A DNA stretch of 64,000 nt from contig AP039695.1 of assembly GCA_051599415.1 (NCBI GenBank), positions 1 through 64,000 on the forward strand, read 5' to 3'. The position numbers and the translations under genes were made by a program. Positions 12,316-55,400 of this stretch are shown here, piece by piece. The stretch's first letter is position 1, and the number at the start of each line of letters is the position of its first letter. This DNA comes from Savitreella phatthalungensis. Lineage: Eukaryota. The notes under the pieces were generated by a model that was given only the letters and a program-made list of their open reading frames with translations, ran no database searches and was not told the origin of the DNA.

Positions 12316-14790
12316 ATGAAGGTCGACCACATAGTCTTGGCTGCTGCCGCTCTAGGCGGCGCTGCCGTCGATGCTGTTGCTCTTCCTGGTCGTGTCTTCC
12401 TGACGGTGCCAGCATTGATCAACCCGCTGACTCAGACACCATCATCATCGCTATCGTCCTTTTCTTCTTCCCGTTCCAGCAGCGCATCTTCAGCTTCAAG
12501 CGCTTCTCCAACCGCATTGGCGAATCCGCTAGTTTTGGGTGGCCGTGTCTTCAAGACGACACCTGTTTCATCGTCCTCGTCCAAGACGACTTCTTCATCT
12601 ACCGCGACAGCTCCGACCACAAAATCATCGTCCATCTCCACGACGAGCACTAGCACAGTCATCGCATCTGCGCCGGCACTAAATCTTCAGCCTAGCTCCG
12701 TCAAGCCGTCGTCGTCGTCATCAAGCTTGCCGTTCTCTGTAAAGCCTTCGTCAGCTTCTCCTTCGCTGACCTCTAGCAAGCCCGTGTCGACCATGGTGTC
12801 GAGCTCGGCAACCTCATCATCGCCGGTCTCGTCGTCGCGCCTTTCCAGCTCCAGCCTCATGTCTTCTACGAAGGTCCTCGTCACAACAACATCTCGGGCA
12901 CCTCCCTCATCATCATCGTCGGCTTCTTGGTCGACGCTAGCGTCGATCAAATCATCCGGTGCTGCATCATCCTCGCGCCCTACCCTTAGCTCCTCCGCTA
13001 GTGCCGCCGCATCGTCGCAGTCGGCCACTGTTTCTTCTACACTGGTCGACATCGGTTGCTGGGCAGACAACACTGGCGTACGAGCGTTCTCGGGTCCGAG
13101 CTACGTTGACACAGTCAACATGACTCGAGAATCCTGCGCAGCCTTCTGCACAAACCAGGGTTTCCCATACAGTGGAACAGAATACGCGCAGGAATGCTAC
13201 TGCTCCGCTACAATGCCGACCACACAGGCCTGGTGGTGCAACATGCCCTGCAAGGGCAACGCGCTCGAAACATGCGGCAGTGGCGGCGCAATGTCCGTGT
13301 TCTATCAAGCGAAAATCACAAATGCCGCTTCGTATGCAACATCAGACATGGGTTGCTACGGTGACGCCAGTGCCGAACGCACATTCACCGGTCCTGCTTA
13401 CGTTTCGACGACCAACATGACAACCGAGAACTGCGCCAACTTCTGTCTCGGACAGGGCTTCCCTTACAGCGGCACCGAGTATGGCCAAGAGTGTTACTGC
13501 TCGGCGACCGCTCCGTGGTCCAATCCAGTCAGCTGCAACATGGGCTGTACCGGCAACAAGCTCGAGAATTGTGGCGACGGCAATGCGCTGCACGTTATCT
13601 TCATGAACAACGGCACGAAGACTGCATCAGCCATCGCTCCGGTGTCTTCCGCCGTTAACAGCACACTGTCGACGCTGAACTCGACTCGAATCCTTCAGGG
13701 TGTATCCTTGCCGCAGACATTCTCGAGCTGGTCAACCTTCAAGGGTATAGGTGTGAATCTCGGAAATTGGCTGATTCTCGAACGTTGGATGGATACCACT
13801 TGGTTTGACAACCAGGCCCCGGGCGCACAGGATGAATGGACTTTCTGCCAACAACTCGGGAAGGTCAACTGCTCTAACGTGTTGCAACAGCATTGGGCAT
13901 CCTGGGTCACGGAATCCGACATCGCAACGATGGCAAGTATTTCAGTCAACACACTTCGCATTCCGATTGGCTTCTGGGCATTCATCGATCCCGACTCGAC
14001 TGAGCCTTATGTCCGCTCGACTCAATTGCAACATGTCTCACGCGTTCTCGGCTATGCAGCAAAATACGGCATGACTGTCATTCTTGATCTGCATGGTCTG
14101 CCTGGCTCACAAAATGGCAAAGATCACTCCGGACACATCGGCGATGTCAATTGGATGACCGACGCCAACCAACAACGTCTGGCACAGACGGTGACCGCTG
14201 CTGCGAAATGGGTTGCGGCCAACGGACAGGGCGTCATCAGCACGATTGAGGTGGCTAACGAGCCTGCTCTTGACGGTTGGGCAGGCTGGCTCGCATACAA
14301 AGACATCGTCGTCGCCGCCAAGCAGATCATCGATGCTAACGCCCCTGGCACGACTACCATGTTCCATGACGGTTTCATGCCTTGGGATGCTTGGAACCAC
14401 TACTTCCCCAAGGGCAGCAATGTCGTCATTGACGCTCACAATTACTGGGCATTTGCGCCGGTGACCACCAGTGACGCCATCTCTCAAGTGTGCGCTATCA
14501 TCGACAAATTCGCAAACTTGAACATGCCCGTCTTTGTCGGCGAGTTCTCCTTATCCGTCATGACCGCGCAAAACACTCCTCAGAGCTGGCTCGCAGCCTT
14601 TTTCGAGTCTCAGATGCAATCTTGGTTGCAGTCTGCCGGCGGTGCTTTCTGGTCGCTGCGCGTCAATAACGCGGACGGCGTATCGCAGAATCCCGCTTGG
14701 TCTGCGCTGGGTGTTGTTCAGGCTGGTCTTCTCAACCAGCCGAACTTCTGGAACTTGACAGAAGGTCTTTGCGGCTCCATGACAGTCTAA
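12316..14790 (+). CDS. Secreted GH5 beta-glucanase with Ser/Thr-rich stalk and two WSC domains
   Basis: Signal peptide, Ser-rich region, two WSC repeats (GCW/GCY..C..FC..YSGTEY.QECYC..C.GN..E.CG), and GH5 motifs GVNLGNWL, LRIPIG, LDLHGLPGSQNG, ANEP (acid/base) and VGEFS (nucleophile). Confidence 0.92.
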   Translation: MKVDHIVLAAAALGGAAVDAVALPGRVFLTVPALINPLTQTPSSSLSSFSSSRSSSASSASSASPTALANPLVLGGRVFKTTPVSSSSSKTTSSSTATAPTTKSSSISTTSTSTVIASAPALNLQPSSVKPSSSSSSLPFSVKPSSASPSLTSSKPVSTMVSSSATSSSPVSSSRLSSSSLMSSTKVLVTTTSRAPPSSSSSASWSTLASIKSSGAASSSRPTLSSSASAAASSQSATVSSTLVDIGCWADNTGVRAFSGPSYVDTVNMTRESCAAFCTNQGFPYSGTEYAQECYCSATMPTTQAWWCNMPCKGNALETCGSGGAMSVFYQAKITNAASYATSDMGCYGDASAERTFTGPAYVSTTNMTTENCANFCLGQGFPYSGTEYGQECYCSATAPWSNPVSCNMGCTGNKLENCGDGNALHVIFMNNGTKTASAIAPVSSAVNSTLSTLNSTRILQGVSLPQTFSSWSTFKGIGVNLGNWLILERWMDTTWFDNQAPGAQDEWTFCQQLGKVNCSNVLQQHWASWVTESDIATMASISVNTLRIPIGFWAFIDPDSTEPYVRSTQLQHVSRVLGYAAKYGMTVILDLHGLPGSQNGKDHSGHIGDVNWMTDANQQRLAQTVTAAAKWVAANGQGVISTIEVANEPALDGWAGWLAYKDIVVAAKQIIDANAPGTTTMFHDGFMPWDAWNHYFPKGSNVVIDAHNYWAFAPVTTSDAISQVCAIIDKFANLNMPVFVGEFSLSVMTAQNTPQSWLAAFFESQMQSWLQSAGGAFWSLRVNNADGVSQNPAWSALGVVQAGLLNQPNFWNLTEGLCGSMTV

Positions 14791-17050: not shown

Positions 17051-18352
17051 ATGGACAGAGCAGCACAGAAAGCAAATCCCAGCTCTTCTCAAGTACAACA
17101 GCGGTGGCAACAGCAGCGAGTTCAATACCAGCAAGTGCAGGACGAGCAGCCGATGGGGTATCAGACAATTGACAGCAGTCCAGCTTTCAGCCCATTCATC
17201 ACCATGGGGGGCGACCGTACACGATCGACGATGGGTTTCTTGCCACAACAGCAAGATGTGTTTTTGAGACCAGAATCTCAAGCCGGCCACGCTGGAATGC
17301 CACACGGTCGGCAGCTGCGGCGCCACGAAGCCATTCCGACCAGTGCAAATACGACCATCGATCCTGCTCGCTTTGATCTTGACATTAAGCTTGGCGTGGA
17401 AGGCAAGCCGTATTCCTATGCACGTCTCATCACCTACGCGATTGCGCATTCTGAAACAGGCAAGATGAGTCTTTCTGAAATCTATGATTTTTGCCTCGAG
17501 CACTTTCCGTACTTTTCCAAGCAGGCGAGCACGGGCTGGAAGAATTCGGTGCGGCACAACTTGAGCTTGAACAAGCTCTTTGTGAAGATCCCTCGGCCTG
17601 TGCATGAATCGGGTAAAGGTGCTTATTGGGCACTGGATATGGAGATGCTTGCTGCAGCCGGTGGGTCGGCCCCTTCGACGAATAGCTCGCGACAGGGCTC
17701 CGGCCCGGGTCCATTGAGCTCATTGAGCATGATGGCCACGCGCAGTAATAGACATCTTCGAACTAGGTCGCACTCGGCGCTTGAGCCGCTGCAACGCCCT
17801 CACCGAGCAAGTACCGTCCACGACAGGAACGACGATAGGAAAGACTCGCCCATTCTCCCACGTCAGCCCAATCCGCAAATCCGTGCGAGGCCGATGTCTG
17901 ATATTTACGGCTTGCAGGAGAGAGCTCCCGGAGACTGCTTGATTGACATACTTGATGTGATTCCGAAGGAGTTGGCCTTCGGCGAGCTGAGCACGCTGCG
18001 AGCAGAGCAGAACGTCAGTTTCGATTCGGGCTCGAGCGATTCCATAGTCATCTCACCTGCTTTCCAGGACATGCCGTCGGAAGTCGAACTTCTGGATATC
18101 TTGATGGCGAATGGATCCGGAGAGCCATCACGACGAGAGTCCATACCTTTGGTGGCACCCGTGGTGACATCATCAGCTACAATCAGGCTCAGTGGACGCG
18201 AGCAGCGTGACGATCCGTTGCCACGACCCGTGGAATCCATGGGATTCCCACAAGCTGCAATGTTTCAAGATATGCATGCATTCATGCAAGCTGGCGAGCT
18301 TGGCGTAGATCACGAAGGAGCCCAGGGAGGATGGAACAGCACGAGTTCTTAG
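17051..18352 (+). CDS. Forkhead transcription factor
   Basis: KPYSYARLI..LSEIY..FPYF..GWKNSVRHNLSLNKLFVK..GKGAYW. Start uncertain, as the ORF is open from 16889. Confidence 0.9.
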   Translation: MDRAAQKANPSSSQVQQRWQQQRVQYQQVQDEQPMGYQTIDSSPAFSPFITMGGDRTRSTMGFLPQQQDVFLRPESQAGHAGMPHGRQLRRHEAIPTSANTTIDPARFDLDIKLGVEGKPYSYARLITYAIAHSETGKMSLSEIYDFCLEHFPYFSKQASTGWKNSVRHNLSLNKLFVKIPRPVHESGKGAYWALDMEMLAAAGGSAPSTNSSRQGSGPGPLSSLSMMATRSNRHLRTRSHSALEPLQRPHRASTVHDRNDDRKDSPILPRQPNPQIRARPMSDIYGLQERAPGDCLIDILDVIPKELAFGELSTLRAEQNVSFDSGSSDSIVISPAFQDMPSEVELLDILMANGSGEPSRRESIPLVAPVVTSSATIRLSGREQRDDPLPRPVESMGFPQAAMFQDMHAFMQAGELGVDHEGAQGGWNSTSS

Positions 18353-19938
18353 GTTCTGTAGGTGACTTTCTTGAACTTAAATCGTAAGCGAAGAACACCG
18401 TCCTCGAAGCTTGCCATAAACCCGCCTTGGACGCGCGCCGAGTGATCCCAGGGCAGATCAACAACCCTAAAGCAGATATCCGCGTACGCAGATCCTGGCG
18501 GACAGGAGAACCTGAGGATGCAGTAAGGCTGTTCGACCTTATGCGCGTCAGGCGGCACTCGCGGATCGATGGGCGAGGCACTGGGCTTGAAGGATCCTCG
18601 CGCTGATATGTTCGACTGAGGGTGCACGATAAATCGCTGATCAGGAAAAGGCGTGGGCGCAGTTTCCTCGTCCCATTCGTGCAATGCCAAATGACGGTCA
18701 GGCTCGCGAGCACACTCGATGCGCTCTACACGGTATGTAGGAACATCGGATCCTGAAGGAAGTTCTGGGTAGAAGACCGCAAAATCGTAACCGACAACAG
18801 CAGCTGGGGGAATCTCCCCGTTGGCTGTTGAGTAGTGGGATCTGTTATAGCTGTTCCACTCAAACCGCTTAATGCGTTTGTTACAGAACAAAGGTCGCAT
18901 CGAGGCCAATTTCAGATCTGAGTCGATCTTACCAGTGCGATGCTGCTCGAACGCTGATTCAGAGCTCAGAAAATCAGGCAATGGATGGTTGTGTGGTTCC
19001 TCTTGACTCCTGAGATCTCGTCTGCTTACCTGCTCGAATAGATCAAGCGCTCGTGGAGATGAATCATACATAATCTTTGTCGAAGGACTGTGAGAAGCGC
19101 TCAGACTGGTGCGTGCAGGATCTATTTGCGGTATCATAACACCTCCCGACGGGCTGAGAACAGCATTACTGGATTTTTGCGCTTCTAATGCCGGACCTCC
19201 GGATTTTGCTGGATTCTTCTTGTTGCGTTTGGACACTATCCGTAAGACCATGCGGTACATTGAGGCTAGCTCAAGTCTGGATATTCGCATAGCGCAATGG
19301 TCTAACAGCCCTGTTTGCTTGTCGAGCTCCTTGTCAAAATGGCTGAGCTCGGTTGGCATTTGATCTTGGAAGTCCTGAAGCTCTTCCCTGGTTTTGCTGT
19401 TAAGCAAGATCTCGGCTTCCACACCCATCCTTTTGCTCTGTGGGGGAGCTTCGAGGCGATACTGACAGAGAGTCTTCACATGGCGCCAATATAGGTGAGA
19501 TCTCTTGTGGGTCTCGAGCTTGAGAAATAGCTGAAGCATTCCGCTCAACTCTTGTAGGGATGGAGCATCGAGCGCATCGATGTAATTCAGGGGCTGAGTC
19601 ATATGGATATTCGGCTCGGCAAGCAGTTCCATGAGGTCAGACTGCGAGCCCGCAGTCGTCGGCTCTGCAAAGACCAGGTTAGCTACGAGAGGGTCAATTA
19701 CCTTCGGGCGTCCATCCCGAATGCGCAGGAGTGATCTGTGCTTAGCTTGCTTGAGCACGAAAGAATCTTCCTCTGATAGCCACTGGTCCATGCTTACAGC
19801 CTCTTGCTTCGCGGCCTTTCTTGCCCTGGACTTTTCATCAGACCAGGGAACCCTCGTATCACATCGCGCGGTCTGATGAGCGTCGAGCGGACTGCGGAAA
19901 GTCTGTTCTTGGTGCTCATGAGACTTAGAGCGTTTCAT
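18349..19938 (-). CDS. Cactin (spliceosome-associated; S. pombe Cay1-like)
   Basis: Mid-domain W..EEDSFVLKQA..RS.LRIRDGRPK.ID and C-terminal FEWNSYNRSHY..PP..VVGYDF..FYPEL..YADICFRVVD..LRLRFKFKK..YR. Confidence 0.9.
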   Translation of the reverse strand: MKRSKSHEHQEQTFRSPLDAHQTARCDTRVPWSDEKSRARKAAKQEAVSMDQWLSEEDSFVLKQAKHRSLLRIRDGRPKVIDPLVANLVFAEPTTAGSQSDLMELLAEPNIHMTQPLNYIDALDAPSLQELSGMLQLFLKLETHKRSHLYWRHVKTLCQYRLEAPPQSKRMGVEAEILLNSKTREELQDFQDQMPTELSHFDKELDKQTGLLDHCAMRISRLELASMYRMVLRIVSKRNKKNPAKSGGPALEAQKSSNAVLSPSGGVMIPQIDPARTSLSASHSPSTKIMYDSSPRALDLFEQVSRRDLRSQEEPHNHPLPDFLSSESAFEQHRTGKIDSDLKLASMRPLFCNKRIKRFEWNSYNRSHYSTANGEIPPAAVVGYDFAVFYPELPSGSDVPTYRVERIECAREPDRHLALHEWDEETAPTPFPDQRFIVHPQSNISARGSFKPSASPIDPRVPPDAHKVEQPYCILRFSCPPGSAYADICFRVVDLPWDHSARVQGGFMASFEDGVLRLRFKFKKVTYRT

Positions 19939-20133: not shown

Positions 20134-20695
20134 ATGGTAGGTCTTCCCGAGCATTCTCGAGCTAAAGACTGATCAAGCAGCTTCCGCTCTCATTACTCAC
20201 AACGGCTCAGGGCCATCCAATGCTGGTAGAGCTCAAGTCTGGAGAAACGTTCAATGGTCATTTACTGCAGTGCGACAATTACATGAATCTGACATTACGT
20301 GAAGTGATTCAGACCAATCGCGTATGTGTCATAGACTGTCCCGAGTCGTGCTAACAATGCAGGACGGAAACAAGTTCCATCGTTTGGCCGAAGTGTACAT
20401 TCGGGGCAATAACATCAAATATTTGAGGATACCCGACGACGTGGTCGACAAGGTACGGGAACGTGAGCGTTCAGAATACCAGCAGCGCCAGAGAGAGCAA
20501 CGTACTCACGGAGCTGGAGGCACAGGAGCCTCTGGCTCTATGGCATCGAATGTTCGAGATGGACGCGGCCGAGGACGTGGTCGGGATGGTATAGACCACA
20601 TACGCAATCAGAAATCGATCAAGCCCGCTGACCTCATGACAACAGGCAACAGCAGTCGTGGAAATCGTGGACGTGGCGGGCGCGGCGCTTTTTGA
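20134..20695 (+). CDS. LSM4: Sm-like protein Lsm4; exons 20134-20136, 20181-20321, 20363-20695 (possible third intron 20589-20645)
   Basis: Spliced product [52 protein letters not shown] with an RG-rich tail. GT..CTRAY..AG introns at 20137-20180 and 20322-20362. Confidence 0.95.
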
Positions 20696-21235
20696 GGATA
20701 TCAATTCCACATATGATCGAATCGCAAACCTGCGCAGCGTGAGCAGGTCCGATCTCGCCGCTGTTTTGCTGCATTCAATTCTCCTCCACAGGTATGCTAG
20801 ATACTGTGGCGGCTCGAATGCGACGCTAGCTCGCGCTACATCCTACCAGCGATGAAGCTGACGAAACACTGTCGACCGCGGTCGGTGAGGCGGCCCTCTC
20901 TGAGTCGACGAAGTGCACAAACGAGTCATGCTTCGACATCTGTGCAAAGTATTTGCGTACATACAATCACATATATGCTGTTCGTATTGCCCGAGGTGGT
21001 GTTCGTACTACCCAATTATTTTGATTGAGCAATATGACCTCACTTTGACGACGCCCGCGTGCTTGAAAAATCCCCGCCGGAAGACTTGGAAAGATTGCTG
21101 TAGTATAATAAGGTACGTCATACATGGCTAAAGCCCAATACAAGCCATCTGGACGGGTCTCCCCATCGTTCTAGATCTTGCGCGCCTCTCAACAGTCAGC
21201 GGGCTTGCCTGTCTTCAAGATCACGCACGACCAGC

Positions 21236-24049
21236 ATGACATTGCGCGCATTGGTCCACAGGCTCGTTCCAGTTCAGCACATCAATGGTCAAAAGGACGA
21301 AATAAACAGAGTGAAGCCGGAAGTCTTTCGCCAGAAGGAAGCACAAGCGAAGCGTAGCGACTATGAGTGGCAGCAGCAACACGAATTCGCGCTTCGACAT
21401 CGTCAGCTCGAGAGAATTCGCCAGGACGAGTGTGAGGAGTTGAAAGAGCGGTTCGGATTTTTAAACGTCGATGGCACAGATGACCTCCGCTTCTCGGGCT
21501 GCCAGCGAGTTCGCCTCCTGGACCTACTGCAGGCGCCTGAAGCTTCCACTTGCTCGGAAGTCTATCTGCAGTGCCGGATTCATCAAATCCGGAGGATGAG
21601 CAGCAAGCTTGTGTTCTTGATTCTCCGACAGCAAATCGATACCATACAGGCTGTGATGAAGATCGATTCCGCTCAGGCCGGCATCTCGACGACATTCGTG
21701 CGTTGGGCAGAGCACATTCCCATTGAGGCAATTGTGCTCGTGCGCGGAAAGCTGTCTGCACCAAGACAGCCAGTTGAAGGGACAACAATCCACTCCTATG
21801 AGCTTCAAATTTCTCACATGTACCTGGTCTCAAGTCTGACCAAAGAACTACCCTTTTCCGTTCAGCAGTCATCCTTGGGAAGCAGACAGGAAGCAGGACC
21901 AGGCATATCGCAACGGACCCTGCTCGGAGATTCTAATCGCATTGTCCATCTTCGATCTCCAGCCGCAAAGATTATCATGCAAGTCCAGTCTGCGATCTGC
22001 AACCTTTTTCGCAGCTACCTAGATGAACATAGGTTTCTCGAGATACACACCCCCAAGCTGCAACGGGGAGCGACAGAGTCTGGTTCCTCTGTCTTCAAGG
22101 TCAATTATTTCGGACGCACGGCTTTCCTTGCTCAGTCGCCGCAGCTGTGTAAGCAGATGTCTATCTCGGCGGACTTCGACCGAGTGTACGAGATTGGCCC
22201 AGTATTTCGGGCGGAGAACTCGAACACACACCGTCACCTCACTGAATATGTCGGTCTCGATATTGAGATGGCTCTCGAGAACGACTACTACGAGATGATG
22301 CGCATTGTCGATGGCATGCTAAAGCATGTCTTTAAAGGCATATATGAGCGCTTCGGACGTGAGCTCGATTTGCTTGAGCAGGTATTTCCGCACCAGAAGC
22401 TGCTGTGGCTAGAAGAGACGCCCATCCTGCGTTTTGATGAAGCAATTCAGATGCTGCTAGATAGTGGCTGGAAGCATGAGGACGGTTCTGTGCCTAGCAA
22501 GAACGAAGACATGGCAACGCAAGACGAAATTCGCCTTGGCGAGCTTGTACGGAAGCGATATAACACAGATTACTACATCATCGACAAGTTTCCAGCATCT
22601 GCTAGGCCATTTTACACTATGCCCGATGCATCAGACCGAACGTTTACGAATTCATTCGACATCTTTGTACGTGGTCAGGAGATCACTACGGGCGGGCAGC
22701 GAATCCACGATGCATCAATGTTGGAAGAGCGTCTCATCAGACAAGGCATAAGCCTAGACGGTATGCAGGAGTATCTGGACGGCTTTCGATGGGCTGCACC
22801 TCCGCATGCAGGTGCAGGCATCGGGTTGGAGCGTCTAGTCATGCTGCTCTTAAATCTTGGGGATATTCGCCACGCGTCATTATTTTACCGCGATCCGAAA
22901 TCACTGCCTGCACCTGGGAAGAGATTTCAGCTGCGCCATCCGGAGGCTTCAACGCTCCATCCGGTGTGGCAGCGTGACGATGCAACAGAACCAAAAGCTG
23001 TTGAGCTGGGTGAGGAAGCAGAACACACACAGGAAGCTCGTAGGTGCGCGAACGAGTCGGAGCTCCCGCTTCTAGAAGACCTCATTGCAAACTATGGCGA
23101 TGCCGCAAATACGACGTGGTTGGACGATCGCTACAAGGTATGGCGGGATCTCAAGTCGGGTGCGGCGGTAGGCTATGTGCCATCGAAAGGTTACGCTATC
23201 ATTGTTGGCGCTCCTCTGTGCGATTCGACGCAATACGGTCGTGTGATTGCAGACTTTCTCGATGAGCTACAGCACAAAGTCAAGCTGAGTCCTATCTGGA
23301 TAATGGTTTCCGAGGAAGTTGAGCAACTCCTTGGTGTACGATTTGGCTGGTCCACGCTGACATGTATTGCTGACGAGCGAGCGGATCTTCGTGACAACAA
23401 AGCGCTTCATGCAAAGGACGTCCAGCGCAAACTTCGCCATGCCAAATCATCCGGGCTCAAAGTAATTATTATACCGGAAGGCGAACCGGTTTCAGAGGAG
23501 CTGCAGCACAAATTGCGCAAAAGAATGGATGACTGGAAGCAGAGTCGCACAGGCCGACAAATTCATCTCACAGAGCTCAATCCCTTTCGTGATCATCGTC
23601 ATCGACGCTATTTGTTGGCTGAAAGCACGCAAGACGGCAAGATACATGGACTCGTTGTGCTAGCACAATTGTCCATGGAACACGGATTCCAGGTGAAGTA
23701 CTCACTGGACTTTCCTGAGGCTCCGTCTGGCACAATCGAATTGCTAAACGTGGAGGCACTCCAGCTTGCCGCCTCTTCAGGAGCGACTACCGTAACTTTC
23801 GGCGTCGAGGCAAGCGAGTTCCACGCCGGTCACAATCTTTCCGGAATTCGTGTGAAAATGCTTTCGAAGTCGTTTAACTCAATATCTAAACAATTCAGAC
23901 TGCGCCAGAAGGGAGATTTCCGCCGTAAGCTCGGAGGTGATCAAGACGGTAACGAATCTTACGTATGCTATCCTCGCCACTCTTTGGGCACAGGCGGAGT
24001 TCGCGCTCTCCTGCATATGCTTGGCGATCAGGAGGAAGAGACTCAATAG
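21236..24049 (+). CDS. erdS: Aspartyl-tRNA synthetase-DUF2156 fusion; ErdS-type sterol-aspartate synthase
   Basis: OB-fold and class IIb motifs (EIHTPKL, AQSPQLCKQ, FRAENSNTHRHLTEY, PPHAGAGIGLERL, RDPK), followed in frame by a ~330-aa C-terminal domain (LEDLIANYGDA..W.DDRY..GAPLC..FQVKYSLDFP..PSGTIE..FR.KLG..YVCYP) that I recognise as DUF2156/GNAT-like. Confidence 0.88.
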   Translation: MTLRALVHRLVPVQHINGQKDEINRVKPEVFRQKEAQAKRSDYEWQQQHEFALRHRQLERIRQDECEELKERFGFLNVDGTDDLRFSGCQRVRLLDLLQAPEASTCSEVYLQCRIHQIRRMSSKLVFLILRQQIDTIQAVMKIDSAQAGISTTFVRWAEHIPIEAIVLVRGKLSAPRQPVEGTTIHSYELQISHMYLVSSLTKELPFSVQQSSLGSRQEAGPGISQRTLLGDSNRIVHLRSPAAKIIMQVQSAICNLFRSYLDEHRFLEIHTPKLQRGATESGSSVFKVNYFGRTAFLAQSPQLCKQMSISADFDRVYEIGPVFRAENSNTHRHLTEYVGLDIEMALENDYYEMMRIVDGMLKHVFKGIYERFGRELDLLEQVFPHQKLLWLEETPILRFDEAIQMLLDSGWKHEDGSVPSKNEDMATQDEIRLGELVRKRYNTDYYIIDKFPASARPFYTMPDASDRTFTNSFDIFVRGQEITTGGQRIHDASMLEERLIRQGISLDGMQEYLDGFRWAAPPHAGAGIGLERLVMLLLNLGDIRHASLFYRDPKSLPAPGKRFQLRHPEASTLHPVWQRDDATEPKAVELGEEAEHTQEARRCANESELPLLEDLIANYGDAANTTWLDDRYKVWRDLKSGAAVGYVPSKGYAIIVGAPLCDSTQYGRVIADFLDELQHKVKLSPIWIMVSEEVEQLLGVRFGWSTLTCIADERADLRDNKALHAKDVQRKLRHAKSSGLKVIIIPEGEPVSEELQHKLRKRMDDWKQSRTGRQIHLTELNPFRDHRHRRYLLAESTQDGKIHGLVVLAQLSMEHGFQVKYSLDFPEAPSGTIELLNVEALQLAASSGATTVTFGVEASEFHAGHNLSGIRVKMLSKSFNSISKQFRLRQKGDFRRKLGGDQDGNESYVCYPRHSLGTGGVRALLHMLGDQEEETQ

Positions 24050-25044: not shown

Positions 25045-27957
25045 TCAGTCAAGCAGGCTTGCGAAGCTCTCGCCAAGTAGAGACACATCGATCACTTGCA
25101 TGGCTGCTCTGACGAAGACACGGAAGCGTGTCGCGCAAACCGGGTCCTCTGCATGGAGTTGCTGCCGTCGAGCGATTTCGGCACTGCTGTCATCAATCCC
25201 ATCCTCAACTGCCTGAAGGGCAGTATCGTCCGGCCAAAACACGCGGTCTTCGCCCGCCTGGCTCTGCACCTCTGCAAGCACGTGCGACCAGAGGAAACCG
25301 AGCGAAGCAATGACCTTCGCATCGGCTTTGATAATCTGATCGGTGCTGTCGAGCACGAGCACGGTGGCAGCCATCGCGACCAGCTTTCGATGCTTCGGAT
25401 GTGACAAACTGTCGAATTTTTCGGTCATGTGCTCTACCATCCGCGCGGGCGACAATCGATGACTCGAATCCGGTTCCCAGGCAGTTGTCACCGCTTTGGC
25501 ATCTGTGATGAGCAGGCGAGCCAGGACCAACATCCGACAAACTTCCACAATTACACTGTCGTCGGTCTGAAGTGCCGCAAAGATAACAGATCTGATAGAC
25601 GCAGGGTCCCATGCCGGAAGCCCGCATGTGATAATGACTGTGTCAAGCGCTTTGGCGACATGAGATATGGCTGCGGCCTCAAAGCCACCTAGCAAGACGA
25701 CTAATTGCTCGATGAGCTTACAAGCTTGCCCATGCTGGCATAAAGCATCGCCAAGCAGTAAACAGCCAGATTCGGTGATGTAGAGCAGCTTGCGAAGGGA
25801 CTCACCCTGTGCCCGGAGACATTGCGGTTCAAGAACGATAGAAAATAGTTGGACGAGCGTTTCATCCGGCTCGGAAGCACTTTGCAAAAGAGCGTGTAGC
25901 AGTTCCAAGGCTTCTTCCATCAAATAGATGTGCTCAATGTTGCTGGCATTGGTTCCATGACGAATCAGTGGCGCGACGACCGGATAGCAGCACATGAGGA
26001 CGGATCGATCACTCTGAGACGTCACAATCCGGGTAAGAAGGCCGAGCATAGCGACGGCTAGCAGCTGCTCGTCTCTAGCTTCGTCCCATTGTTGCTGGAT
26101 GATAGATAAGACCCCTTCAACCTCGTCCTTCACAAAATTTCGTGACCGCTCAAAGATTAATCCGAGACCGGAGATAATCTTCATTTTGGTCTCCTGATGC
26201 TCGGCAAGCGATAGAAGCCTTGCAAGAGAGCGTGCGTAATGGGCTGCGAACGGTCTGAATGAGTCTAGTTGCCAGTCCCAATCGTCGAGAAATGCATGAA
26301 CGTTAGAACCAGCGGCGAGCGCAACTCCGTCTTCTTGTGAGGCCAGCTCGTTAGCAATGATAGCATATACGAATGGCCTCGCTTGCTCACTACACTTGAC
26401 CGAGAACCATTGCGCCAAGAGTATGGACACACGACGGCGAACGATTGCAGGGAGGTGCTTGTTGGTAGTATCACGCTCGAGGTGAGGGATAAAGGCCTCG
26501 AAATCAAAGTGCTCGTCAAGATGTTGTGCCGATATGCCGAGCGCGCTATAGAGAGCCTCTTTGATCAGAACTTCCTGACCGATAGTCGAATCCTTATATT
26601 GGGCCAATACTTCGAGCAGGGGCTGGGTCAGCTGTCGCTTGTACGTTGAGAAGAGGTCTTCAAATACACGTTCCGCACACGGCCGCACCTCGTATTGCCA
26701 GTGCGATGCTTCCTGAGACAGCATCCATCCCTCGGGATCATTCTCCCAATCGCCGAAATCTTCGGCCTTGAGGACGAAGAATTTGATGATAAGGTTTTCC
26801 AGCATTTGAGTCAACGAGTCCGGCGCAAAGAGACTGTTCCCGAGGAGGCTAAGGGCACAGCGAATTTCTTCTGTCGCTTCGCTGTTGATCAGGCGCATCG
26901 ATACGCTGGGCATAGCGACGAGCTTTAGACAAGACTTGACGAGCTGCATACCTTGGAGGACGACTTTGCGGATACAGCCATGGTTGCGACTCGAGACCTC
27001 AGCGGCAGCAACAACCACAGCCCAGTAGCGCCGCACTAGCTCCATTGAGCCCGGCATGAGCACGAAATTAGGATTCGTCGCGATGCTCTCAAGTGCCGAG
27101 TTCGATGCGAGCTCAAGAAACAATTTGCCATGATGAACAATGTGTCTTCTGAGGAGTTCGTCGCGAGCTCGAGGATCAATGTTGCGCATCTCAAGACCAG
27201 AAACGATATTCCAGACGCGGTCAAAGTCCGAGCACAAGCGAGTAAATAGTCGACGACACAATTCGTCCTGATATGGTAATTCGTATCCGGAGCAAATAAG
27301 GCGACGGGCCGTCTTGATCGCAAGATCTGCGACAAGGATCGTGGCTATTGTGCAGCTTTCAAAGTGTTCTAACACTTGCTCCTCGAAGGCATCATATGCT
27401 ACAGCAACAATCCTCAGAAGCTCTGGGGCAGTCTGCTGAAAATGCTCTCGTGCACGCGGTAGGCGCACGCTGACGAGCGACTTGACGACTTGCAACAGCA
27501 GTCGCAGGACACGCACCAAAGTTTCTTCGTCAGTTCGCGCCGCGTCGATGCGCGACGCGATGTCGCGAAACAAGCCGGCCCAGCTTGTCGGATAATCGAT
27601 TCTCGCCACGCGTGCGGTCGCAACAAACAGCTGCGCGGCAACCCTGTCTGGAACCGTCTCTCGATCGCAACCATCAAGAAGGCGGGCACGGATTCGCTCT
27701 TTTTCTTCGTCCGAAAGTGCCGTCCGGGATGATTTGCGCCAATGTTTATCAATGCCATTCTTCAGTTGTATACTTGCCTGTAAACGAGTCGTCTCGGCGA
27801 TTTGCGGTGTCAAAGCAATCTGCAGCAAAAGTCCATAGTAGCCTGGGAGCTCTGTCTCTGCTCGCTCTAGCAAGATTCGTGTGCTCTGGGAAGCAAATTG
27901 GTCTGATAGCAAAGAGCTCAGTTCAGCAAGCTGTGCGTCGACTGACATCTCAGCCAT
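25045..27957 (-). CDS. Importin-beta family karyopherin, importin-11/Kap120-like
   Basis: IBN_N-type RLQASIQLKNGIDKHWR, ARIDYP..W, WENDPEGW..RPCAE and KEALY; helical repeats over 970 aa. Confidence 0.87.
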   Translation of the reverse strand: MAEMSVDAQLAELSSLLSDQFASQSTRILLERAETELPGYYGLLLQIALTPQIAETTRLQASIQLKNGIDKHWRKSSRTALSDEEKERIRARLLDGCDRETVPDRVAAQLFVATARVARIDYPTSWAGLFRDIASRIDAARTDEETLVRVLRLLLQVVKSLVSVRLPRAREHFQQTAPELLRIVAVAYDAFEEQVLEHFESCTIATILVADLAIKTARRLICSGYELPYQDELCRRLFTRLCSDFDRVWNIVSGLEMRNIDPRARDELLRRHIVHHGKLFLELASNSALESIATNPNFVLMPGSMELVRRYWAVVVAAAEVSSRNHGCIRKVVLQGMQLVKSCLKLVAMPSVSMRLINSEATEEIRCALSLLGNSLFAPDSLTQMLENLIIKFFVLKAEDFGDWENDPEGWMLSQEASHWQYEVRPCAERVFEDLFSTYKRQLTQPLLEVLAQYKDSTIGQEVLIKEALYSALGISAQHLDEHFDFEAFIPHLERDTTNKHLPAIVRRRVSILLAQWFSVKCSEQARPFVYAIIANELASQEDGVALAAGSNVHAFLDDWDWQLDSFRPFAAHYARSLARLLSLAEHQETKMKIISGLGLIFERSRNFVKDEVEGVLSIIQQQWDEARDEQLLAVAMLGLLTRIVTSQSDRSVLMCCYPVVAPLIRHGTNASNIEHIYLMEEALELLHALLQSASEPDETLVQLFSIVLEPQCLRAQGESLRKLLYITESGCLLLGDALCQHGQACKLIEQLVVLLGGFEAAAISHVAKALDTVIITCGLPAWDPASIRSVIFAALQTDDSVIVEVCRMLVLARLLITDAKAVTTAWEPDSSHRLSPARMVEHMTEKFDSLSHPKHRKLVAMAATVLVLDSTDQIIKADAKVIASLGFLWSHVLAEVQSQAGEDRVFWPDDTALQAVEDGIDDSSAEIARRQQLHAEDPVCATRFRVFVRAAMQVIDVSLLGESFASLLD

Positions 27958-28482: not shown

Positions 28483-30722
28483 CTATGCGGCCAAAGGATT
28501 CTTGCGACGGCCAAGCAAAGTTGCATTGTCCATGTTCAGCTCAAATCCGCCTTTTTTGCGCGCCCCGCCAGATGCAGTGGCGATCGAAGCAGCTCCGCCG
28601 GCACGTCGTTTCCTCTCGGCTACAGCGCCGTTGCCAATCGACGTATTCTGCAGCTGTCCTGCCACGCCCGCCACGCCATCGCTCTTGCCTGGCTGCCTAT
28701 TGCCAACGACGGACTGAGCATCGGCCATGATTTCGTCCTCCTCTTCTTCGTCCATCGCATTGAGATCCGCTAGCCGATAGTTTGCGTGCTTAGTATTCTT
28801 TTTGCGGTTGGACTCCTCCTCTTGACGATGTACAGCGTACGTGACGTCAAATACTTCTCGCAGCGCCACCATGCCGGGCGAGCGGAAGTCACGCTTTGTA
28901 CCACCAGGTGTTCGCATACCGGCCTCTGTGAAGCGCCCACCAGGGGTTTGGGCGGGATAGTTCACGTCCATGAATTCTGCCGGTGTTTGAGCAGCCAAAC
29001 CTGTCGGTGGTGCGTCCGAAGCCGGCTGTGTCTCTTCGTTCGTTTCACGAATCCATGGGTGAGCCAGAAATTCATCGATAGTGTACCGCTGGTCCGGATC
29101 CACTGTCAGAAGATGCGAGATCAGGTCTTGCGCCGATTTCGAGATCTCGTCCCACCACGGACTCAGGAAAGTGTATTGACCCCGCGCGACTTTTTCCGTT
29201 AATGCCTGAATGCTCTCGTCATAAAACGGCGGAAAGCCACATAGCAGTGTATAAAGCACGCAACCAAGAGCCCACATGTCGACGGACTTGGAGTAGCGCT
29301 CGTCTTTGACAATCTCGGGGGCTGTGTAGCCAACAGTGCCGCAAGGCGTCATCGTCTGCGCATCCCAAACCACTTTGGACAAGCCGAAGTCTGCCAATTT
29401 GATCACGCCAATGCCACCCGCGCCTTTGCCGGCGACAAACTCGCCTTCATCCTCCTTGTCCTCGTCTTCACCTGTTCGTACGACGGGGACGCGAGAAGGT
29501 ACGAACTCTATAGGCTCAAATAAGAGATTTTCCGGCTTGATATCGCGATGCACAACGCCCTTTTCTTCGTGCAGATAGCGAATCGACCGTGCGACCTGCG
29601 TGATGACATGTCGTGATAGATCCTCCGAGAAATAGGTGAGGCGTACGATCTGATGAAAGAGCTCGCCCCCCTCGCAGAGCTCAAGCACGAGAAAATAGTA
29701 ATCTCTCGATTCCAAAAACTCATAGAGCTGAACAATGTGAGGATGGTCGAGATTCCGCATGATTTGCACCTCCTTGAGAATGCTTGCGCGCTGTTTAAAA
29801 GGTTAGCCGCCGCACAGAAAATGAAATGCCACAAGAGGCGTTCAGGACAACAAGCTCTTGTTGAACGAGATTGTAACCGTGTACGCGTGCGACTGTCGTG
29901 CTCTCATACCTCAATGCCCTTTGGTACCTTCTTCTTGATGTCCGGGTGGAGGTGCGAGTTTGCCTGCAAAGGAAGATTTGGTTGGCCTCTGTCAACGCAC
30001 ACTTCAGTAGGTGGCAGTTGCGCATCGTGGCATCGCAGCAGTCCAGAGGACGGTGCAGGCTTCCAGCTCGCTTGCAGCACTCAGCGCCTCCTATGGCACA
30101 ACTCGATCGAGGTGAGGCAGGAGGACGGAAAAGAGGCAGAAGAACACGCGGCCGGCTGCATCATCGCCTTGGCAGAGTCCAGCGATCAATCCACGATGCA
30201 CAAGCTGCAGCACCTGATCAGAATCAAACTTACCTGAGAAGAGTTGAGCTCATATTTGCGGACCACTTTGATGGCACAGACCTCGCCGGTTTCGCGATTC
30301 TGGGCTTTGTAAACGTTCGAAAATGCGCCGCTATTGAAAAGGATCAGTCAGTCGCTATATCTTGCAACGCATTTGCAGCGCAGGGTCACTTACTCTCCCA
30401 TTTTGACGATGAGCTTATATTTCTCCAGCCCAGGATAGTGCGGAAGCTTTCCTTTAGCTTCGCGTTCCTCAGCGACGATTCGAGCCGCCGCTTCGTCGTA
30501 CGCAGGCTGGTTCTTCTGCTGTTGCGCTGCAGCTGCAGCAGCAGCAGCAGCCTGCTCCTGAGCTACACGCTCTGCTTGTGCTTTGGCTTGCATTTCTCGA
30601 GCATGCTGTTCCCGTATGACTTTCTCAGCAGCTGCGGTATTGGTGTTGCCAGCGGCCGGCAAGTCCTGTCGGGCCTGTTTGCCATGGCGAATGAAGTTCT
30701 TGAAGCTCTCAATCACAGCCAT
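28483..30722 (-). CDS. MAPK-activated CaMK-family kinase Srk1/Rck2; exons 30722-30394, 30330-30234, 29963-29910, 29790-28483
   Basis: FKNFIRHGKQA N-terminus, spliced MGDGAFSNVY and AIKVVRK, HRDIKPENLL, acidic insert, ADFGLSK, TPCGTVGYTAPE and LREVFD. Canonical GT..AG boundaries read directly. Confidence 0.92.
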
Positions 30723-43062: not shown

Positions 43063-44600
43063 CTACCTGATATGCATGTCCGAGAAGTGTTCTTGCGCAT
43101 CTTCAAACATCTGGTCTTCGGAGTCAACCGGGCTTAATTTCGGTCGGGCGGCATCAGGCGCTTGTGCTTTAGGCGTGCTAGGAGAAGCCAAAGCATTTGC
43201 CGCGTGCGTGCTTGAAGCTGCAGACTGTTTGAGATGGCTTGCACCTGGTGTGATCTGTGGCGACGCACCGGGTTGCGGCCGGAGCGGAGAATTGCCACTA
43301 ATCACAGGAGTTTTTGTTGCTGAATTTGTCGGTCCTCCTTGAGGTGCCGATCCGGGTCTAGCTTCATGAGCAGAGGCTGTCCTGGTGGGCGACATGCCTT
43401 TCGTTGCTGAAGAGCCGGCTTGCTGCGCATCAGTGATTCCGCCTACGGCAGCTTCCATCCAATTCTTCAAATCTGTGCCTTGTAGATCGGCCGGTGCGTT
43501 CAGTGAATACTCTTCGTCCCCTGTCTTGCGAAACAAACTCGGAGACCAATGTTCTCCCGCCTCGTGTCGGCGCCGCGCTTCTTCTCGCTGGGCGTCTTCA
43601 ATATCGCCTTTGAACTGAGTCGCTGCAGCTTGATCTCGGGCTTTGATTGCATCGATCGTGTTCTTCCACAGACGACGTGATTCGCGCTCGCCCATCAACT
43701 CGATTGGTTTCGTTGAGATTGGAGTCTCCTTCGCGGTCATGCCATCGAAGAATGGCTCCACCTTCTTCGTCTTCAAATTCTTAATTGTCATTTGCTCGGT
43801 CCACTTGCCGTCAAGTTCGAAAAGCCTCTCTCCAGTGCTGAGTCTCTTTATGCACCCGCCAATCGTATCGTACTTGCCGCTGATAAAGCCCTTCGTTTTG
43901 AATTCAATGTCAGCAACTAGGTCAGATTGCTCGCATTTGACCATTGAGTGATCGCCCAGTTCCATGCGCATTCGGCCGAACAGGATGCCGCGGGCATACA
44001 TATTGGGTTGCGTGAGAGTATAAAGTTCGTCATGATTCAGAATCCTCAGCGTCGCCTCGCCCTCCATGATACTGCCAGCACTGTTCCCCAAAAACTTGGA
44101 CCGGGGTTTTAGCAGTCCGTCGATTCGTATTTTGTGTTCCGGGCAGTAGTAGCAATATGCAGAGATAGGAGGATGATGGGAGACCTGCTCGGCTAAGTAT
44201 AGTGCTTGAGTGCCATCCGCAATTGTCCAGTATCCGCTGAAGACCTCGCCGAGGATCGGATTCAACGGTTTCTTAACTCCCGGGGGTCGAATATGCCAGC
44301 CGGCCATATAGAATCGTACTACTTCGACAAAGCGGGCAACTGGGTCGCTCAATTCGGGAATCGGCATCAATAGTTCGGGATGGGCCATGAAGCTGTTCGG
44401 AGTCAGTCCAGACCGGTCTTACAAGTGAACACGCATGCTTACTTTGTGATTCGCTCGAGCATCGATTTCGGCTCGAGAATGAAAGTCGGCAACGTTATAC
44501 GCGAGAGATCCATTCCTGGTCGAAGCTGTCCGATGATGCCCATGATGATAGATTTCTGATCATCCTCTAGCGCAGTCTCTGCCGCATCTTCCTTCGTCAT
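43063..44600 (-). CDS. Oxysterol-binding protein homologue Osh6/Osh7-like; exons 44600-44443, 44392-43063
   Basis: Spliced QLRPGMDLSRITLPTFILEPKSMLERITNFM, KKPLNPILGE and the EQVSHHPP signature. Intron 44393-44442. Confidence 0.92.
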
Positions 44601-52411: not shown

Positions 52412-55400
52412 ATGACGATATCAGCAGAGAAAATCACTGACACCGAAGCAGAGCAGTCTGCTCCGGCTTCAAAGGATGCTCATGCTGGACTTGCTTCTCG
52501 GCGACGTGCGCCGCCCGTCCCACCACCCGCGCCACCGCAGGGCAGCAAACGAATGCCAAATACACTTGGGAGAAACGTCCCACCGCCGCCTCGACCAGTT
52601 GCTTCAAGTGCGGGACATCGAGACCATTCAGCAGCGCCGAGTCTCAGGCTGAAAATGGACGAAAAGCAACGCTGCTGGGCAAAGCTCCGGAAAGACAGAT
52701 TTATGCTCGAGCGCAGAACGGGCTTCATCGAGACGCAAAAATCCGATATGCCGCCGGAGCATCTGCGGCAAATCATGCGCATGCACGGCGACATGAGTAG
52801 CCGGAGATTTAGTCGAGAAAAACGCTCCTACTTGGGCGCCCTGAAGTACATGCCACACGCGGTACTGAAGTTGCTCGAGAACATGCCCATGCCGTGGGAA
52901 GACGTGCGCGAGGTGCCAGTCCTGTACCACATTACAGGTGCTATCACGTTCGTCAACGAGACACCTCGCGTGATAGAGCCAGTTTATATTGCCCAATGGA
53001 GCACCGTCTGGACCACGATGCGTCGAGAAAAGCGTGATCGACGGCATATGCGCAGATTGCGACTTCCACCGTTCGATGACGAAGAACCGCCGCTGCTCGA
53101 ACAAGTCTCGGAAATGGCCGATCTTGAGCCACCTGAACCAGTACAGATGGATCTTGATGAGCACGAAGATTCTGAAATTCTCGACTGGTTTTACGACCCG
53201 AGACCCTTAAGCGATTCAGCGCAGGTCAACGGCCCAAGCTACAGGAAATGGAACCTGACTCTGCCGCAAATGGCTACGCTTTACCGTTTCTCGCGTCACT
53301 TGCAGTCCGGTCCCGTGGATCGCAATCAACAATACCTCTTCGACAAAGAAAGTTTTCAAACTGCAAAAGCTCTGAATGTGGCCATACCGGGAGGACCACG
53401 TTTCGAGCCACTTTATAAAGATGTGGCCGAGATGAAAGATGAAGACTGGAATGAATTCAATGACATTCACAAGATTATCTTTCGTCAGCCCGTGCGAACA
53501 GAGTATCGCATCGCTTTTCCGCACTTTTACAATTCACTCCCTCGATCGGTTACGACTGCCAGATACCACGAGCCGCCCAGTATGTATATGTTGGCTGAGG
53601 ATCCCGATTTGCCCGCATTCTTTTTCGATCCAGCCTACAGTCCGATGAGGAAGATCGCACCTGCGAACGAGATGGTTCTCGAGAAATCCGAGCTGCAGCA
53701 TCAGGTCGAGGACGTGCTGTGTGATATGTTTGAGCTGCCTCTTGGGACTCAGCCGTTGCTATGCACCAAGCCACTCGAACCAGAATCGACGAACGATGCA
53801 CTCATGCTTTGGTTCGCGCCGCATCCTTTCAACAAACGAAGTGGATCAACGGTTCGCGCGCAAGATGTACCTCTAATCAAGCACTGGTACCTTGAGCATT
53901 GTCCTCCAGGGCAACCCGTCAAGGTGCGGGTTTCATATCAGAAACTCTTGAAGAGTTACGTTCTCAATTCGATTCACCACAAGCAGCCAAAGCCGCACGG
54001 CAACAAGTCGCTCTACAAACAACTCAAGGGGACGAAATATTTCCAGAGCACGACCATCGATTGGGTCGAGGCGGGCTTACAGCTCGTTCGTCAAGGTCAC
54101 AATATGCTTAATCTGCTCATACATCGCAAAGGGCTGACCTATCTGCATCTCGACTACAATTTTAACCTGAAGCCAATTAAGACTTTGACGACGAAGGAGC
54201 GCAAGAAGTCTCGCTTCGGCAACGCATTCCACCTGATTCGAGAAATTCTACGGCTCACCAAGCTTCTTGTCGATGCTCAAGTGCAGTACAGACTAGGAAA
54301 CATCGATGCATTCCAGCTCGCCGACGGGATACACTACATTTTCAACCATGTCGGACAGCTGACTGGCATGTATCGCTACAAATACAGGCTCATGCGACAG
54401 ATTCGAGCCTGCAAAGACTTGAAGCATCTCATCTATTACAGGTTCAATACTGGGCCAGTAGGCAAAGGGCCCGGCGTGGGGTTCTGGGCGCCAGCTTGGC
54501 GTGTATGGATATTTTTCCTCCGGGGTATCGTCCCACTATTGGAACGCTGGCTTGGTAATTTGCTCGCCAGACAATTTGAAGGGCGCCATGCTTCCGGCAT
54601 TGCCAGAACCATCACAAAGCAGCGTGTCGAGTCGAATTACGATCTGGAGCTGCGTGCTTCGATCATGAACGACATTCTCGATATGATGCCTGATGGAATA
54701 CGGCAGAGCAAAACAAAGCTTGTCTTGCAGCACCTCTCCGAGGCTTGGCGATGCTGGAAAGCCAACATTCCTTGGTCCGTGCCTGGCTTACCTGCACAGA
54801 TCGAATCCGTCATCCTGCGATACATCAAGGCGAAGTCGGATCATTGGGTGTCTGTGGCACATTACAATCGTGAACGCATACGGCGCGGGGCGACTGTCGA
54901 CAAAACAGTGGCAAAGAAAAATCTTGGCCGACTGACACGCCTATACCTCAAGGCTGAGCACGAACGCCAGCGCAGCTACCTCAGGGATGGTCCCTATGTG
55001 ACTACCGAGGAGGCTGTAGCAATGTACACCAGTACCGTACATTGGCTAGAAAGCCGGAAATTCCAGCCGATTCCCTTTCCGCCGCTGAACTATAAGCACG
55101 ACACGAAACTTCTGATACTTGCGCTCGAGCGACTGAAAGAGGCGTACAGCGTCCAGGGTCGACTCAACCAAAGTCAGCGTGAGGAATTGGCTCTCATCGA
55201 ACAGGCATATGACAATCCTCATGAGACTCTCAGCCGTATCAAAAGACTGCTGCTCACACAACGCTCTTTCAAGGAAGCTGGGGTTGAGTTTTTCGACAAC
55301 TACAGCCACCTTACGCCGGTTTTCACTATCGAGCCGATTGAGAAAATCACGGATGCCTATTTGGACCAGTATCTATGGTACGAAGCCGAGAAGCGCAATC

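Follow-up and report, generated by a model that had tools for sequence, protein, structure and literature searches.

The gene at 21236..24049 on the forward strand of the 64,000-nucleotide (nt) stretch analyzed here (Savitreella phatthalungensis, contig AP039695.1, positions 1 to 64,000; hereafter the window, meaning the whole stretch) raises the question of whether it encodes an intact ErdS, the fungal fusion of an aspartyl-tRNA synthetase (AspRS) with a DUF2156 aminoacyl-tRNA transferase (ATT) domain, and which sterol such an enzyme would modify. To our knowledge, ErdS is the only eukaryotic system that diverts charged tRNA to lipid modification, and we know of studies of its biology (sporulation, germination, and stress tolerance) only in Pezizomycotina such as Aspergillus, Neurospora, and Magnaporthe. 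We find that the gene is very probably an intact ErdS orthologue, an ordinary member of a known fungal family, and that its differences from typical ErdS loci are minor. The evidence comes from the architecture and fold of its product, from the critical residues that this product retains, and from its deep position in the phylogeny.

The open reading frame (ORF) listing of the window contains one ATG-to-stop ORF of 937 codons plus stop at 21236..24049 on the forward strand, and its translation is referred to as P0001. The nearest in-frame stop 5' of position 21236 is a TAG at 21101-21103, with no in-frame ATG between them when the upstream DNA is read by eye, and the beginning of P0001 (MTLRALVHRL) aligns with the N-terminus conserved in ErdS (MSxLKxALxK) across the 15 displayed alignment rows, indicating that the start codon is right and that no upstream exon is missing. 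Pfam assigns three domains to P0001, all above their cutoffs and in the order known from ErdS: tRNA_anti-codon (PF01336, aa 113-196, 27.9 bits, cutoff 27), tRNA-synt_2 (PF00152, aa 234-551, E = 1.5e-72), and LPG_synthase_C (PF09924, which is DUF2156; aa 623-857, E = 1.8e-15). The preliminary description had proposed that an AspRS ending at RDPKSL near 22905 continues in frame into a DUF2156 domain from about 23060. RDPKSL corresponds to residues 552-557 (nt 22889-22906) and nt 23060 falls in residue 609; the frame is open through the linker, and both halves lie in one polypeptide. In the C-terminal region, the hidden Markov model for DUF2156 (PF09924) scores 57.2 bits against a cutoff of 27.5. 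The parts of the gene, all on the forward strand, are as follows.

21236..24049, forward strand: complete erdS coding sequence with no intron needed (ORF, translation, and one-stretch alignment to 9w9f_A).
21236..21535, forward strand: N-terminal domain, aa 1-100 (120-row alignment; its role in A. fumigatus is taken from PMC13219428).
21317..21424, forward strand: long N-terminal alpha-helix as predicted by the model (aa 28-63), corresponding to the tRNA-elbow clamp helix of A. fumigatus (DSSP on the model; alignment).
21572..21823, forward strand: OB-fold anticodon-binding domain, aa 113-196 (PF01336; match of the whole-chain model to yeast AspRS).
21935..22888, forward strand: class II AspRS catalytic core, aa 234-551 (PF00152, TIGR00458, and alignments to 9w9f, 9w9g, and yeast 1asy).
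22907..23062, forward strand: inter-domain linker, aa 558-609 (low model confidence; 37-46% identity to six compared relatives).
23063..23410, forward strand: GNAT I subdomain, aa 610-725, with the sterol-pocket loop Y620...R632 (YGDAANTTWLDDR) inside it (alignment, domain model, and PMC13219428).
23414..23449, forward strand: alpha(+) helix, aa 727-738, with R731, K732, R734, and H735 (alignment, DSSP, and PMC13219428).
23450..24025, forward strand: GNAT II subdomain (aa 739-930), holding the CCA pocket, the catalytic residues, Q819, and K821 (alignments, fold match to 4v36, and PMC13219428).

A PDB sequence search aligns residues 32-930 of P0001 in one stretch with the 947-residue chain 9w9f_A (E = 5.4e-285), and 9w9e and 9w9g score similarly; 9W9E, 9W9F, and 9W9G are the cryo-EM structures of Aspergillus fumigatus ErdS (AFUA_1g02570; PMC13219428). 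The two proteins share the same domain order and have lengths of 937 and 947 aa. We listed the best 120 proteins (P0001 and 119 others) of the 3,315 that match with E <= 1e-10 in a collection of 5.8 billion proteins. The 119 others are 48-58% identical to P0001, and two of them carry the JGI name 'ergosteryl-3beta-O-L-aspartate synthase'. Because the fusion of PF00152 with PF09924 is found in 119 of these 119 proteins, an artefact of assembly or gene modelling that joined two genes is ruled out. The only close relatives of P0001 among the matches listed are P0002 and P0003, which come from assemblies of public sequencing runs and share 73% identity with one another and 57-58% with P0001. Identity to close Aspergillus orthologues is about 65% in the AspRS core and about 47% in the transferase domain, and the transferase domain is 47-61% identical to six compared relatives. 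A Protein Atlas query with residues 590-937 returned only bacterial PF09924 clusters, without useful taxon information. The Pfam and NCBIfam assignments, the full-length match to A. fumigatus ErdS, the retained critical residues, and the C-terminal fold all bear out the earlier assignment of this architecture to ErdS.

The AspRS half matches known AspRS enzymes. Its score with TIGR00458, the NCBIfam equivalog for archaeal/eukaryote-type AspRS, is 403 bits (cutoff 368), and yeast AspRS aligns with residues 69-557 (E = 2e-124) and shares motif 2 (FRAENSNTHRH) and motif 3 (GIGLER). In structure 9W9G, a variant mutated to weaken tRNA binding, the altered active-site and tRNA-binding residues are Q334, S335, N362, S363, N364, H366, R367, H368, and Y494 (PMC13219428). 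Alignments to 9w9f and 9w9g show that P0001 has the wild-type residue at all nine positions (Q300, S301, N328, S329, N330, H332, R333, H334, and Y460). P0001 resembles the canonical yeast AspRS Dps1 (1ASY/1EOV) in sequence over residues 69-557 and in its whole-chain model, and differs from it by an extra 380 residues of linker and transferase domain. No second tRNA-synt_2 domain was matched among the window ORFs scanned with Pfam.

An AlphaFold2 model of the whole chain, built from a 54-row alignment (A1), has a mean pLDDT of 80.6, with most blocks of the transferase domain above 90 and with values below 50 in the linker at 553-560 and 584-604. Foldseek with this model returned only AspRS and AsnRS structures, led by yeast 1eov and 1asy (TMt 0.85-0.86); the library held entries up to 2026-04-08 and lacked the ErdS cryo-EM chains. 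Because the whole-chain search gave aminoacyl-tRNA synthetase matches only, residues 600-937 were modelled (58-row alignment A2; pLDDT 93.3, pTM 0.89) and searched alone. The best match is the Bacillus licheniformis lysyl-phosphatidylglycerol synthase 4v36 (E = 1e-17, TMq 0.74), followed by other MprF and alanyl-phosphatidylglycerol synthase domains and then by FemX and other aminoacyl-tRNA-dependent transferases, and the relatives of the A. fumigatus ErdS transferase were ranked in the same order (PMC13219428). The C-terminal domain shares PF09924 and the fold of the bacterial enzymes L-PGS 4V36, A-PGS 4V34, and MprF 7DUW (E = 1e-17 to 1e-13, TMq 0.60-0.74). It is only 14-17% identical to them, however, and the N-terminal part of P0001 is a soluble AspRS, whereas theirs is a membrane flippase and their substrate is phosphatidylglycerol. 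Mycobacterial LysX is also a synthetase-transferase fusion, but the LysX model NF002821 gives P0001 only 85 bits against a cutoff of 742.

The residues mutagenized in A. fumigatus ErdS were mapped onto P0001 with a HMMER alignment and subsequently with a MAFFT alignment of 120 rows made from the listed homologues, and nearly all of them are present. W767, R771, Q775, H777, F895, R896, K898, Q819, and K821 of P0001 are invariant in the 120 rows, and G773 is found in 119 of them. At the CCA-pocket and catalytic positions (A. fumigatus W785, R789, K790, G791, Q793, H795, F913, R914, and K916), eight of nine residues are identical in P0001, the exception being K790. H777 and R896 correspond to H795 and R914, which are the proposed general base and the proposed oxyanion stabilizer in A. 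fumigatus ErdS (PMC13219428). In the alpha(+) helix, R731, K732, R734, and H735 correspond to A. fumigatus R749, K750, R752, and R753; three of the four keep Arg or Lys, and the fourth is His, the residue most often found there (79 of 120 rows). Five sterol-pocket residues of A. fumigatus lower the activity when mutated (PMC13219428); four of them, Q836, W645, D647, and K838, are identical in P0001 as Q819, W628, D630, and K821, and the fifth, S644, is changed. W802 is replaced by Phe784, and Phe is found there in 15 of 120 rows.

From these correspondences we infer how P0001 would work, following the mechanism proposed for A. fumigatus ErdS (PMC13219428); its catalytic activity, the dimer with its swinging arm, and the identity of the sterol are all argued by analogy. 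The protein would dimerize through its AspRS halves, as A. fumigatus ErdS does. The AspRS domain would activate aspartate and charge a bound tRNA-Asp, with the anticodon-binding domain, the N-terminal helix, and the transferase domains holding it. Next, a swing of about 23 Angstrom would carry the acceptor arm into the GNAT II pocket of the DUF2156 (dGNAT alpha(+)) domain of the partner subunit. There His777 would deprotonate the 3-beta-OH of the sterol, and Arg896 would stabilize the build-up of negative charge at the carbonyl oxygen of the Asp-tRNA ester. The products would be a steryl-3-beta-O-L-aspartate and a free tRNA ready for the next round. According to PMC8913301, ErgS belongs to the same DUF2156/dGNAT family and likewise uses an aminoacyl-tRNA donor and a sterol 3-beta-OH acceptor, but it is freestanding and uses Gly-tRNA-Gly made in trans, whereas the transferase of P0001 is fused in frame to AspRS.

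The N-terminal domain of P0001 is about 40 residues shorter than that of the A. fumigatus enzyme. In A. fumigatus ErdS, a long N-terminal helix with an xSKxxLKKxx-type motif clamps the tRNA elbow and sequesters the tRNA, and removal of 30 N-terminal residues lowers ergosteryl-aspartate (Erg-Asp) synthesis 17.8-fold (PMC13219428). Only 73 residues precede the invariant Gly74 in P0001, compared with a median of 113.5 across the 120 aligned rows, and the corresponding numbers are 76 in P0002 and 80 in P0003. The Ser-rich segment is missing from P0001. Where 12 of the 15 displayed rows have 'LSKNQ..K', P0001 has FRQKEAQAKR, and the SK..K clamp motif is degenerate and unrecognizable in P0001, P0002, and P0003. 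This call rests on the displayed alignment; a strict regular expression for the published xSKxxLKKxx matched 1 of 120 sequences, and the literal pattern is a poor test for that reason. A helix is still predicted at aa 28-63 (DSSP), with a mean pLDDT of only 40-75 in its 10-residue blocks and values below 50 for residues 1-32, and aa 32-75 align with residues 70-113 of A. fumigatus ErdS. The Magnaporthe oryzae enzyme also lacks the clamp motif (PMC13219428).

Such a shortened clamp would allow another use for the protein, in which Asp-tRNA-Asp is set free and the enzyme also, or solely, serves cytosolic translation, with a separate canonical AspRS perhaps lacking. In line with this, progressive N-terminal truncation of A. 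fumigatus ErdS improves the complementation of a yeast AspRS deletion, which was read as easier release of Asp-tRNA (PMC13219428), and the AspRS catalytic residues of P0001 are all intact. We nevertheless consider this explanation extremely unlikely. A second AspRS is reported for all the Dikarya fungi examined that carry ErdS (PMC7334510, PMC13219428), the long helix at 28-63 is still predicted, and the ATT domains sequester tRNA too (PMC13219428). By analogy with the A. fumigatus enzyme, an intact ErdS such as P0001 is expected to sequester its tRNA and not to feed translation.

We next turn to the lineage in which this ErdS is found. The Prp8 gene of the host (52412-59647, forward strand, intronless, 2,411 residues) has its best named match in Protomyces lactucae-debilis (79% identity), compared with 71% for Saitoella, 70% for Pneumocystis, and mostly 68-73% for the other listed proteins. 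A quick LG+G4 tree was built with 18 Prp8 proteins out of the 120 listed; in it, the host is sister to Protomyces plus one further protein (SH-aLRT 100), on a branch of 0.25 against 0.066-0.082 for its two nearest relatives. A taxonomy look-up places Protomyces in Taphrinales, Taphrinomycetes. This marker gene supports a host in Taphrinomycotina, nearest to Protomyces, while A. fumigatus belongs to Pezizomycotina. The preliminary description had considered that the genome might be Taphrinales-like: the placement near Protomyces roughly agrees with that, although, on a long branch and at only 79% identity, the support does not extend to Taphrinales proper.

For the ErdS tree we used 31 rows and 944 columns in IQ-TREE. 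Twenty-four rows were picked from the 120 listed proteins to span classes (96 left out), and seven were added from 50%-identity representatives or named cluster mates, including the basidiomycetes Laetiporus, Acaromyces, Ceraceosorus, and Tilletia. P0001, P0002, and P0003 form a clade with 100/100 support. This trio falls outside a clade of 20 rows (89/91) to which every sampled Pezizomycotina row belongs apart from one sordariomycete row, and it groups weakly (89/85) with long-branched Ustilaginomycotina and that single sordariomycete row, which is itself long-branched. The deep nodes are moderately supported, and the four basidiomycete rows do not lie on one side of a branch. In this tree, the ErdS of the window is clearly not nested in any Pezizomycotina class, and its position outside the Pezizomycotina clade fits vertical descent in an early-branching ascomycete.

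Searches for ErdS in named relatives of the host yielded none: Protomyces, Taphrina, Saitoella, Pneumocystis, Schizosaccharomyces, and Neolecta are absent from the best 120 matches listed for P0001 or P0002, of more than 3,000 matches in a collection that includes the proteomes of Protomyces, Saitoella, and Pneumocystis. A renewed search with the short-branched P0002 added no further member of the trio among the 120 best matches listed. Horizontal acquisition from a Pezizomycotina donor would account for the lack of a named Taphrinomycotina ErdS among the matches listed. We give this idea hardly any credence: the P0001 clade lies outside the Pezizomycotina clade and is nested in no class, P0001 is about equally distant (48-53% identity) from all Pezizomycotina classes, and the gene region, with a G+C content of 0.514-0.516, does not stand out from its surroundings. 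An ancient transfer is compatible with the tree, because the deep nodes are only moderately supported and the lone sordariomycete row is long-branched among basidiomycetes.

The homologue listing also bears on the distribution of ErdS in other fungi. Full-length three-domain ErdS proteins are annotated in the lichen fungi Mycoblastus, Lepraria, Psora, Blastenia, Lecanora, Brigantiaea, Puttea, Hypocenomyce, and Lasallia (proteins P0004, P0007, P0013, P0014, P0019, P0048, P0060, P0097, and P0105). Mycoblastus and Lepraria are Lecanoromycetes according to a taxonomy look-up, and we take the other seven genera to belong to the same class. A previous survey found ErdS in 9 of 13 lineages and counted Lecanoromycetes among the lineages without it (PMC7334510), a gap that seems to be a sampling artefact. 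One further match, P0255 (914 aa, 610 bits, 42% identity, with its best stretch in the AspRS core at query residues 232-557), lies on a 62-Mb contig of the assembly of the plant Orobanche gracilis and could reflect fungal contamination or transfer.

The genomic neighborhood differs from that of typical erdS genes. Most species examined, among them A. fumigatus, A. oryzae, and N. crassa, have next to erdS a divergently transcribed gene, erdH, encoding a PF07859 alpha/beta-hydrolase that removes the aspartate, although the two genes may be separated in some species (PMC7334510). The gene in the window has instead an LSm-like ORF upstream on the same strand and importin-11 downstream.

18349-19938, reverse strand: cactin, a neighbor of erdS.
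20324-20695, forward strand: LSm-like ORF with an Arg/Gly-rich tail, directly upstream of erdS (profile positions 36-65 only, E = 0.005, below cutoff).
25045-27957, reverse strand: importin-11, downstream of erdS.
28483-29760, reverse strand: protein kinase, a neighboring gene.

The LSm-like ORF holds only the second half of the LSM domain in frame, and a short first exon probably lies further upstream. No ErdH-type PF07859 domain was detected in the 64-kb window in 26 ORFs at E <= 1e-5 or in 68 frames at E <= 0.01. The scan of 26 ORFs covered all but 9 of the 35 ATG-initiated ORFs of at least 150 aa, the nine being overlapping or antisense, and two such regions were covered by the second scan. 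The 68 frames of that second scan consist of 62 further frames of at least 75 codons and 6 of the 26 ORFs scanned again; the window has 261 stop-to-stop frames of at least 75 codons, 199 of which lie at least half inside 27 large ORFs and were not scanned separately, and exons shorter than 75 codons would escape. The usual linkage of erdS to erdH is thus absent within 64 kb in the frames scanned.

Other genes of the window were noted in the same scans. The only alpha/beta-hydrolase seen is encoded at 59889-61535 (reverse strand, 548 aa), 36 kb from erdS; its C-terminal 200 residues belong to the dienelactone-hydrolase family (PF01738, E = 2.3e-25), a family other than the PF07859 of ErdH, and the preceding 340 residues or so have no Pfam match. 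An oxysterol-binding protein (PF01237, E = 1.5e-58) is encoded 19 kb downstream of erdS at 43063-44388 (reverse strand) and probably serves routine sterol transfer as a housekeeping gene; there is no sign of a functional link to erdS. The product of 12316-14790 (forward strand, 824 aa) carries a GH5 cellulase domain together with two WSC domains. This is the architecture of an enzyme that is secreted or located in the cell wall, and it would fit a fungus associated with plants. No tRNA genes were found in the 64-kb window. The genome looks compact and intron-poor, since Prp8 occupies one frame and most window genes are long single ORFs.

Several of the observations weigh against an intact and conventional ErdS. 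At the position of A. fumigatus K790, P0001 has Thr772, where the 120 rows contain Lys 98 times, Thr 7 times, Gln 6 times, His 4 times, and Glu twice; a K790E mutation lowers the activity of the A. fumigatus enzyme (R = 0.40 versus 1.42 for the wild type), and Glu is the natural residue there in M. oryzae (PMC13219428). In the sterol loop, S644 is replaced by Thr627, the sole Thr among the 120 rows, and S644A, the only S644 change tried, had the strongest effect of the pocket mutants except for Q836R (PMC13219428). Ala624, at the position of T641, is likewise unique (Thr in 94 rows, Ser in 25, and Ala in 1). To these are added the N-terminal domain some 40 residues below the median length with its unrecognizable SK..K motif, the lack of a PF07859 hit in the window frames scanned, and the long branch of P0001 in the ErdS tree (0.67 versus a median of 0.3).

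Together, these features could be taken as the marks of a degenerating or neofunctionalized ErdS in a fast-evolving lineage, in which the AspRS half works while the transferase is poor, or its acceptor has been lost or changed to a non-sterol, and the hydrolase partner is gone. The length of the terminal branch, the substitutions at Ala624, Thr627, and Thr772, the short N-terminal domain, and the failure to find an ErdH-type gene in the window frames scanned would all suit such a history. We consider it very unlikely, since the 937-codon frame is intact, every invariant transferase residue is kept, including His777 and Arg896, and the change from Ser to Thr retains the hydroxyl. In addition, the transferase domain is as similar to the six compared relatives as stated above and its model is highly confident. 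The short N-terminal domain is a feature of the clade and not a sign of decay, because P0002 and P0003 share it and yet keep the consensus sterol loop, without the Ala624 and Thr627 changes of P0001. An intact ErdS therefore remains the preferred reading, and the short clamp, Thr772, Ala624/Thr627, and the missing adjoining erdH leave room, as far as the sequence indicates, for an enzyme that may be less active, leakier, or differently regulated, although no invariant residue is affected by any of these deviations.

As for the sterol acceptor, an intact ErdS in this host would be predicted to use the dominant 3-beta-OH sterol of the host membrane that lacks 4-methyl groups, which would be brassicasterol if the host resembles Taphrina or Protomyces. 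Brassicasterol, a 24-methyl delta-5,22 sterol, bears a 3-beta-OH and lacks 4-methyl groups. The preliminary description cited it as the reported main sterol of Taphrinales, and two studies agree, naming it as the primary sterol across a broad sampling of Taphrina and Protomyces (PMC2878339; PMC3648899). A. fumigatus ErdS aspartylates ergosterol, cholesterol, lathosterol, zymosterol, beta-sitosterol, stigmasterol, and fucosterol, and also coprostanol, diosgenin, pregnenolone, and DHA (PMC13219428). It requires a 3-beta-OH, a non-aromatic A ring, and the absence of 4-methyl groups, and it refuses only sterols that have a 3-alpha-OH, an aromatic A ring, or a 4,4-dimethyl group (PMC13219428). Because ErdS takes almost any 3-beta-OH sterol, brassicasteryl-aspartate is the default prediction if brassicasterol is the main sterol of the host. 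By this analogy the conjugate is expected to be a modest extension of the published promiscuity and not new chemistry. Any novelty of the different sterol-aspartate conjugate suggested earlier thus loses its force, as A. fumigatus ErdS is already promiscuous toward sterols and no change in the enzyme is needed.

In the literature, 'Brassicasteryl' was found only in papers on plant steryl glucosides, and no mention of brassicasteryl-aspartate was found. The literature search returned no paper combining DUF2156 and Taphrinomycotina, the string 'Taphrin' is absent from the main texts of PMC7334510, PMC8913301, and PMC13219428, and one supplement of PMC8913301 does not mention Taphrina, Protomyces, Saitoella, Neolecta, Taphrinomycotina, or Schizosaccharomyces. 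ErdS in an early-branching lineage of the Taphrinomycotina type seems not to have been discussed before. Tentatively, and as a possibility that we rate well below the identification of the gene itself, P0001, P0002, and P0003 may be the members so far of a Taphrinomycotina ErdS lineage that has no linked ErdH and a reduced tRNA clamp and that makes brassicasteryl-3-beta-O-L-aspartate, with Ala624 and Thr627 perhaps adapted to a delta-5 sterol without the delta-7 bond of ergosterol.

The finding leaves the known mechanism of ErdS unchanged, and its value is comparative and incremental. It offers a natural ErdS variant whose tRNA clamp is short and whose gene has no linked hydrolase gene in the frames scanned, and a natural test of sterol promiscuity, as the relatives of the host use brassicasterol in place of ergosterol. 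An intact ErdS in an early-diverging ascomycete related to Protomyces would make it likely that the fusion arose as early as the base of Ascomycota or of Dikarya.

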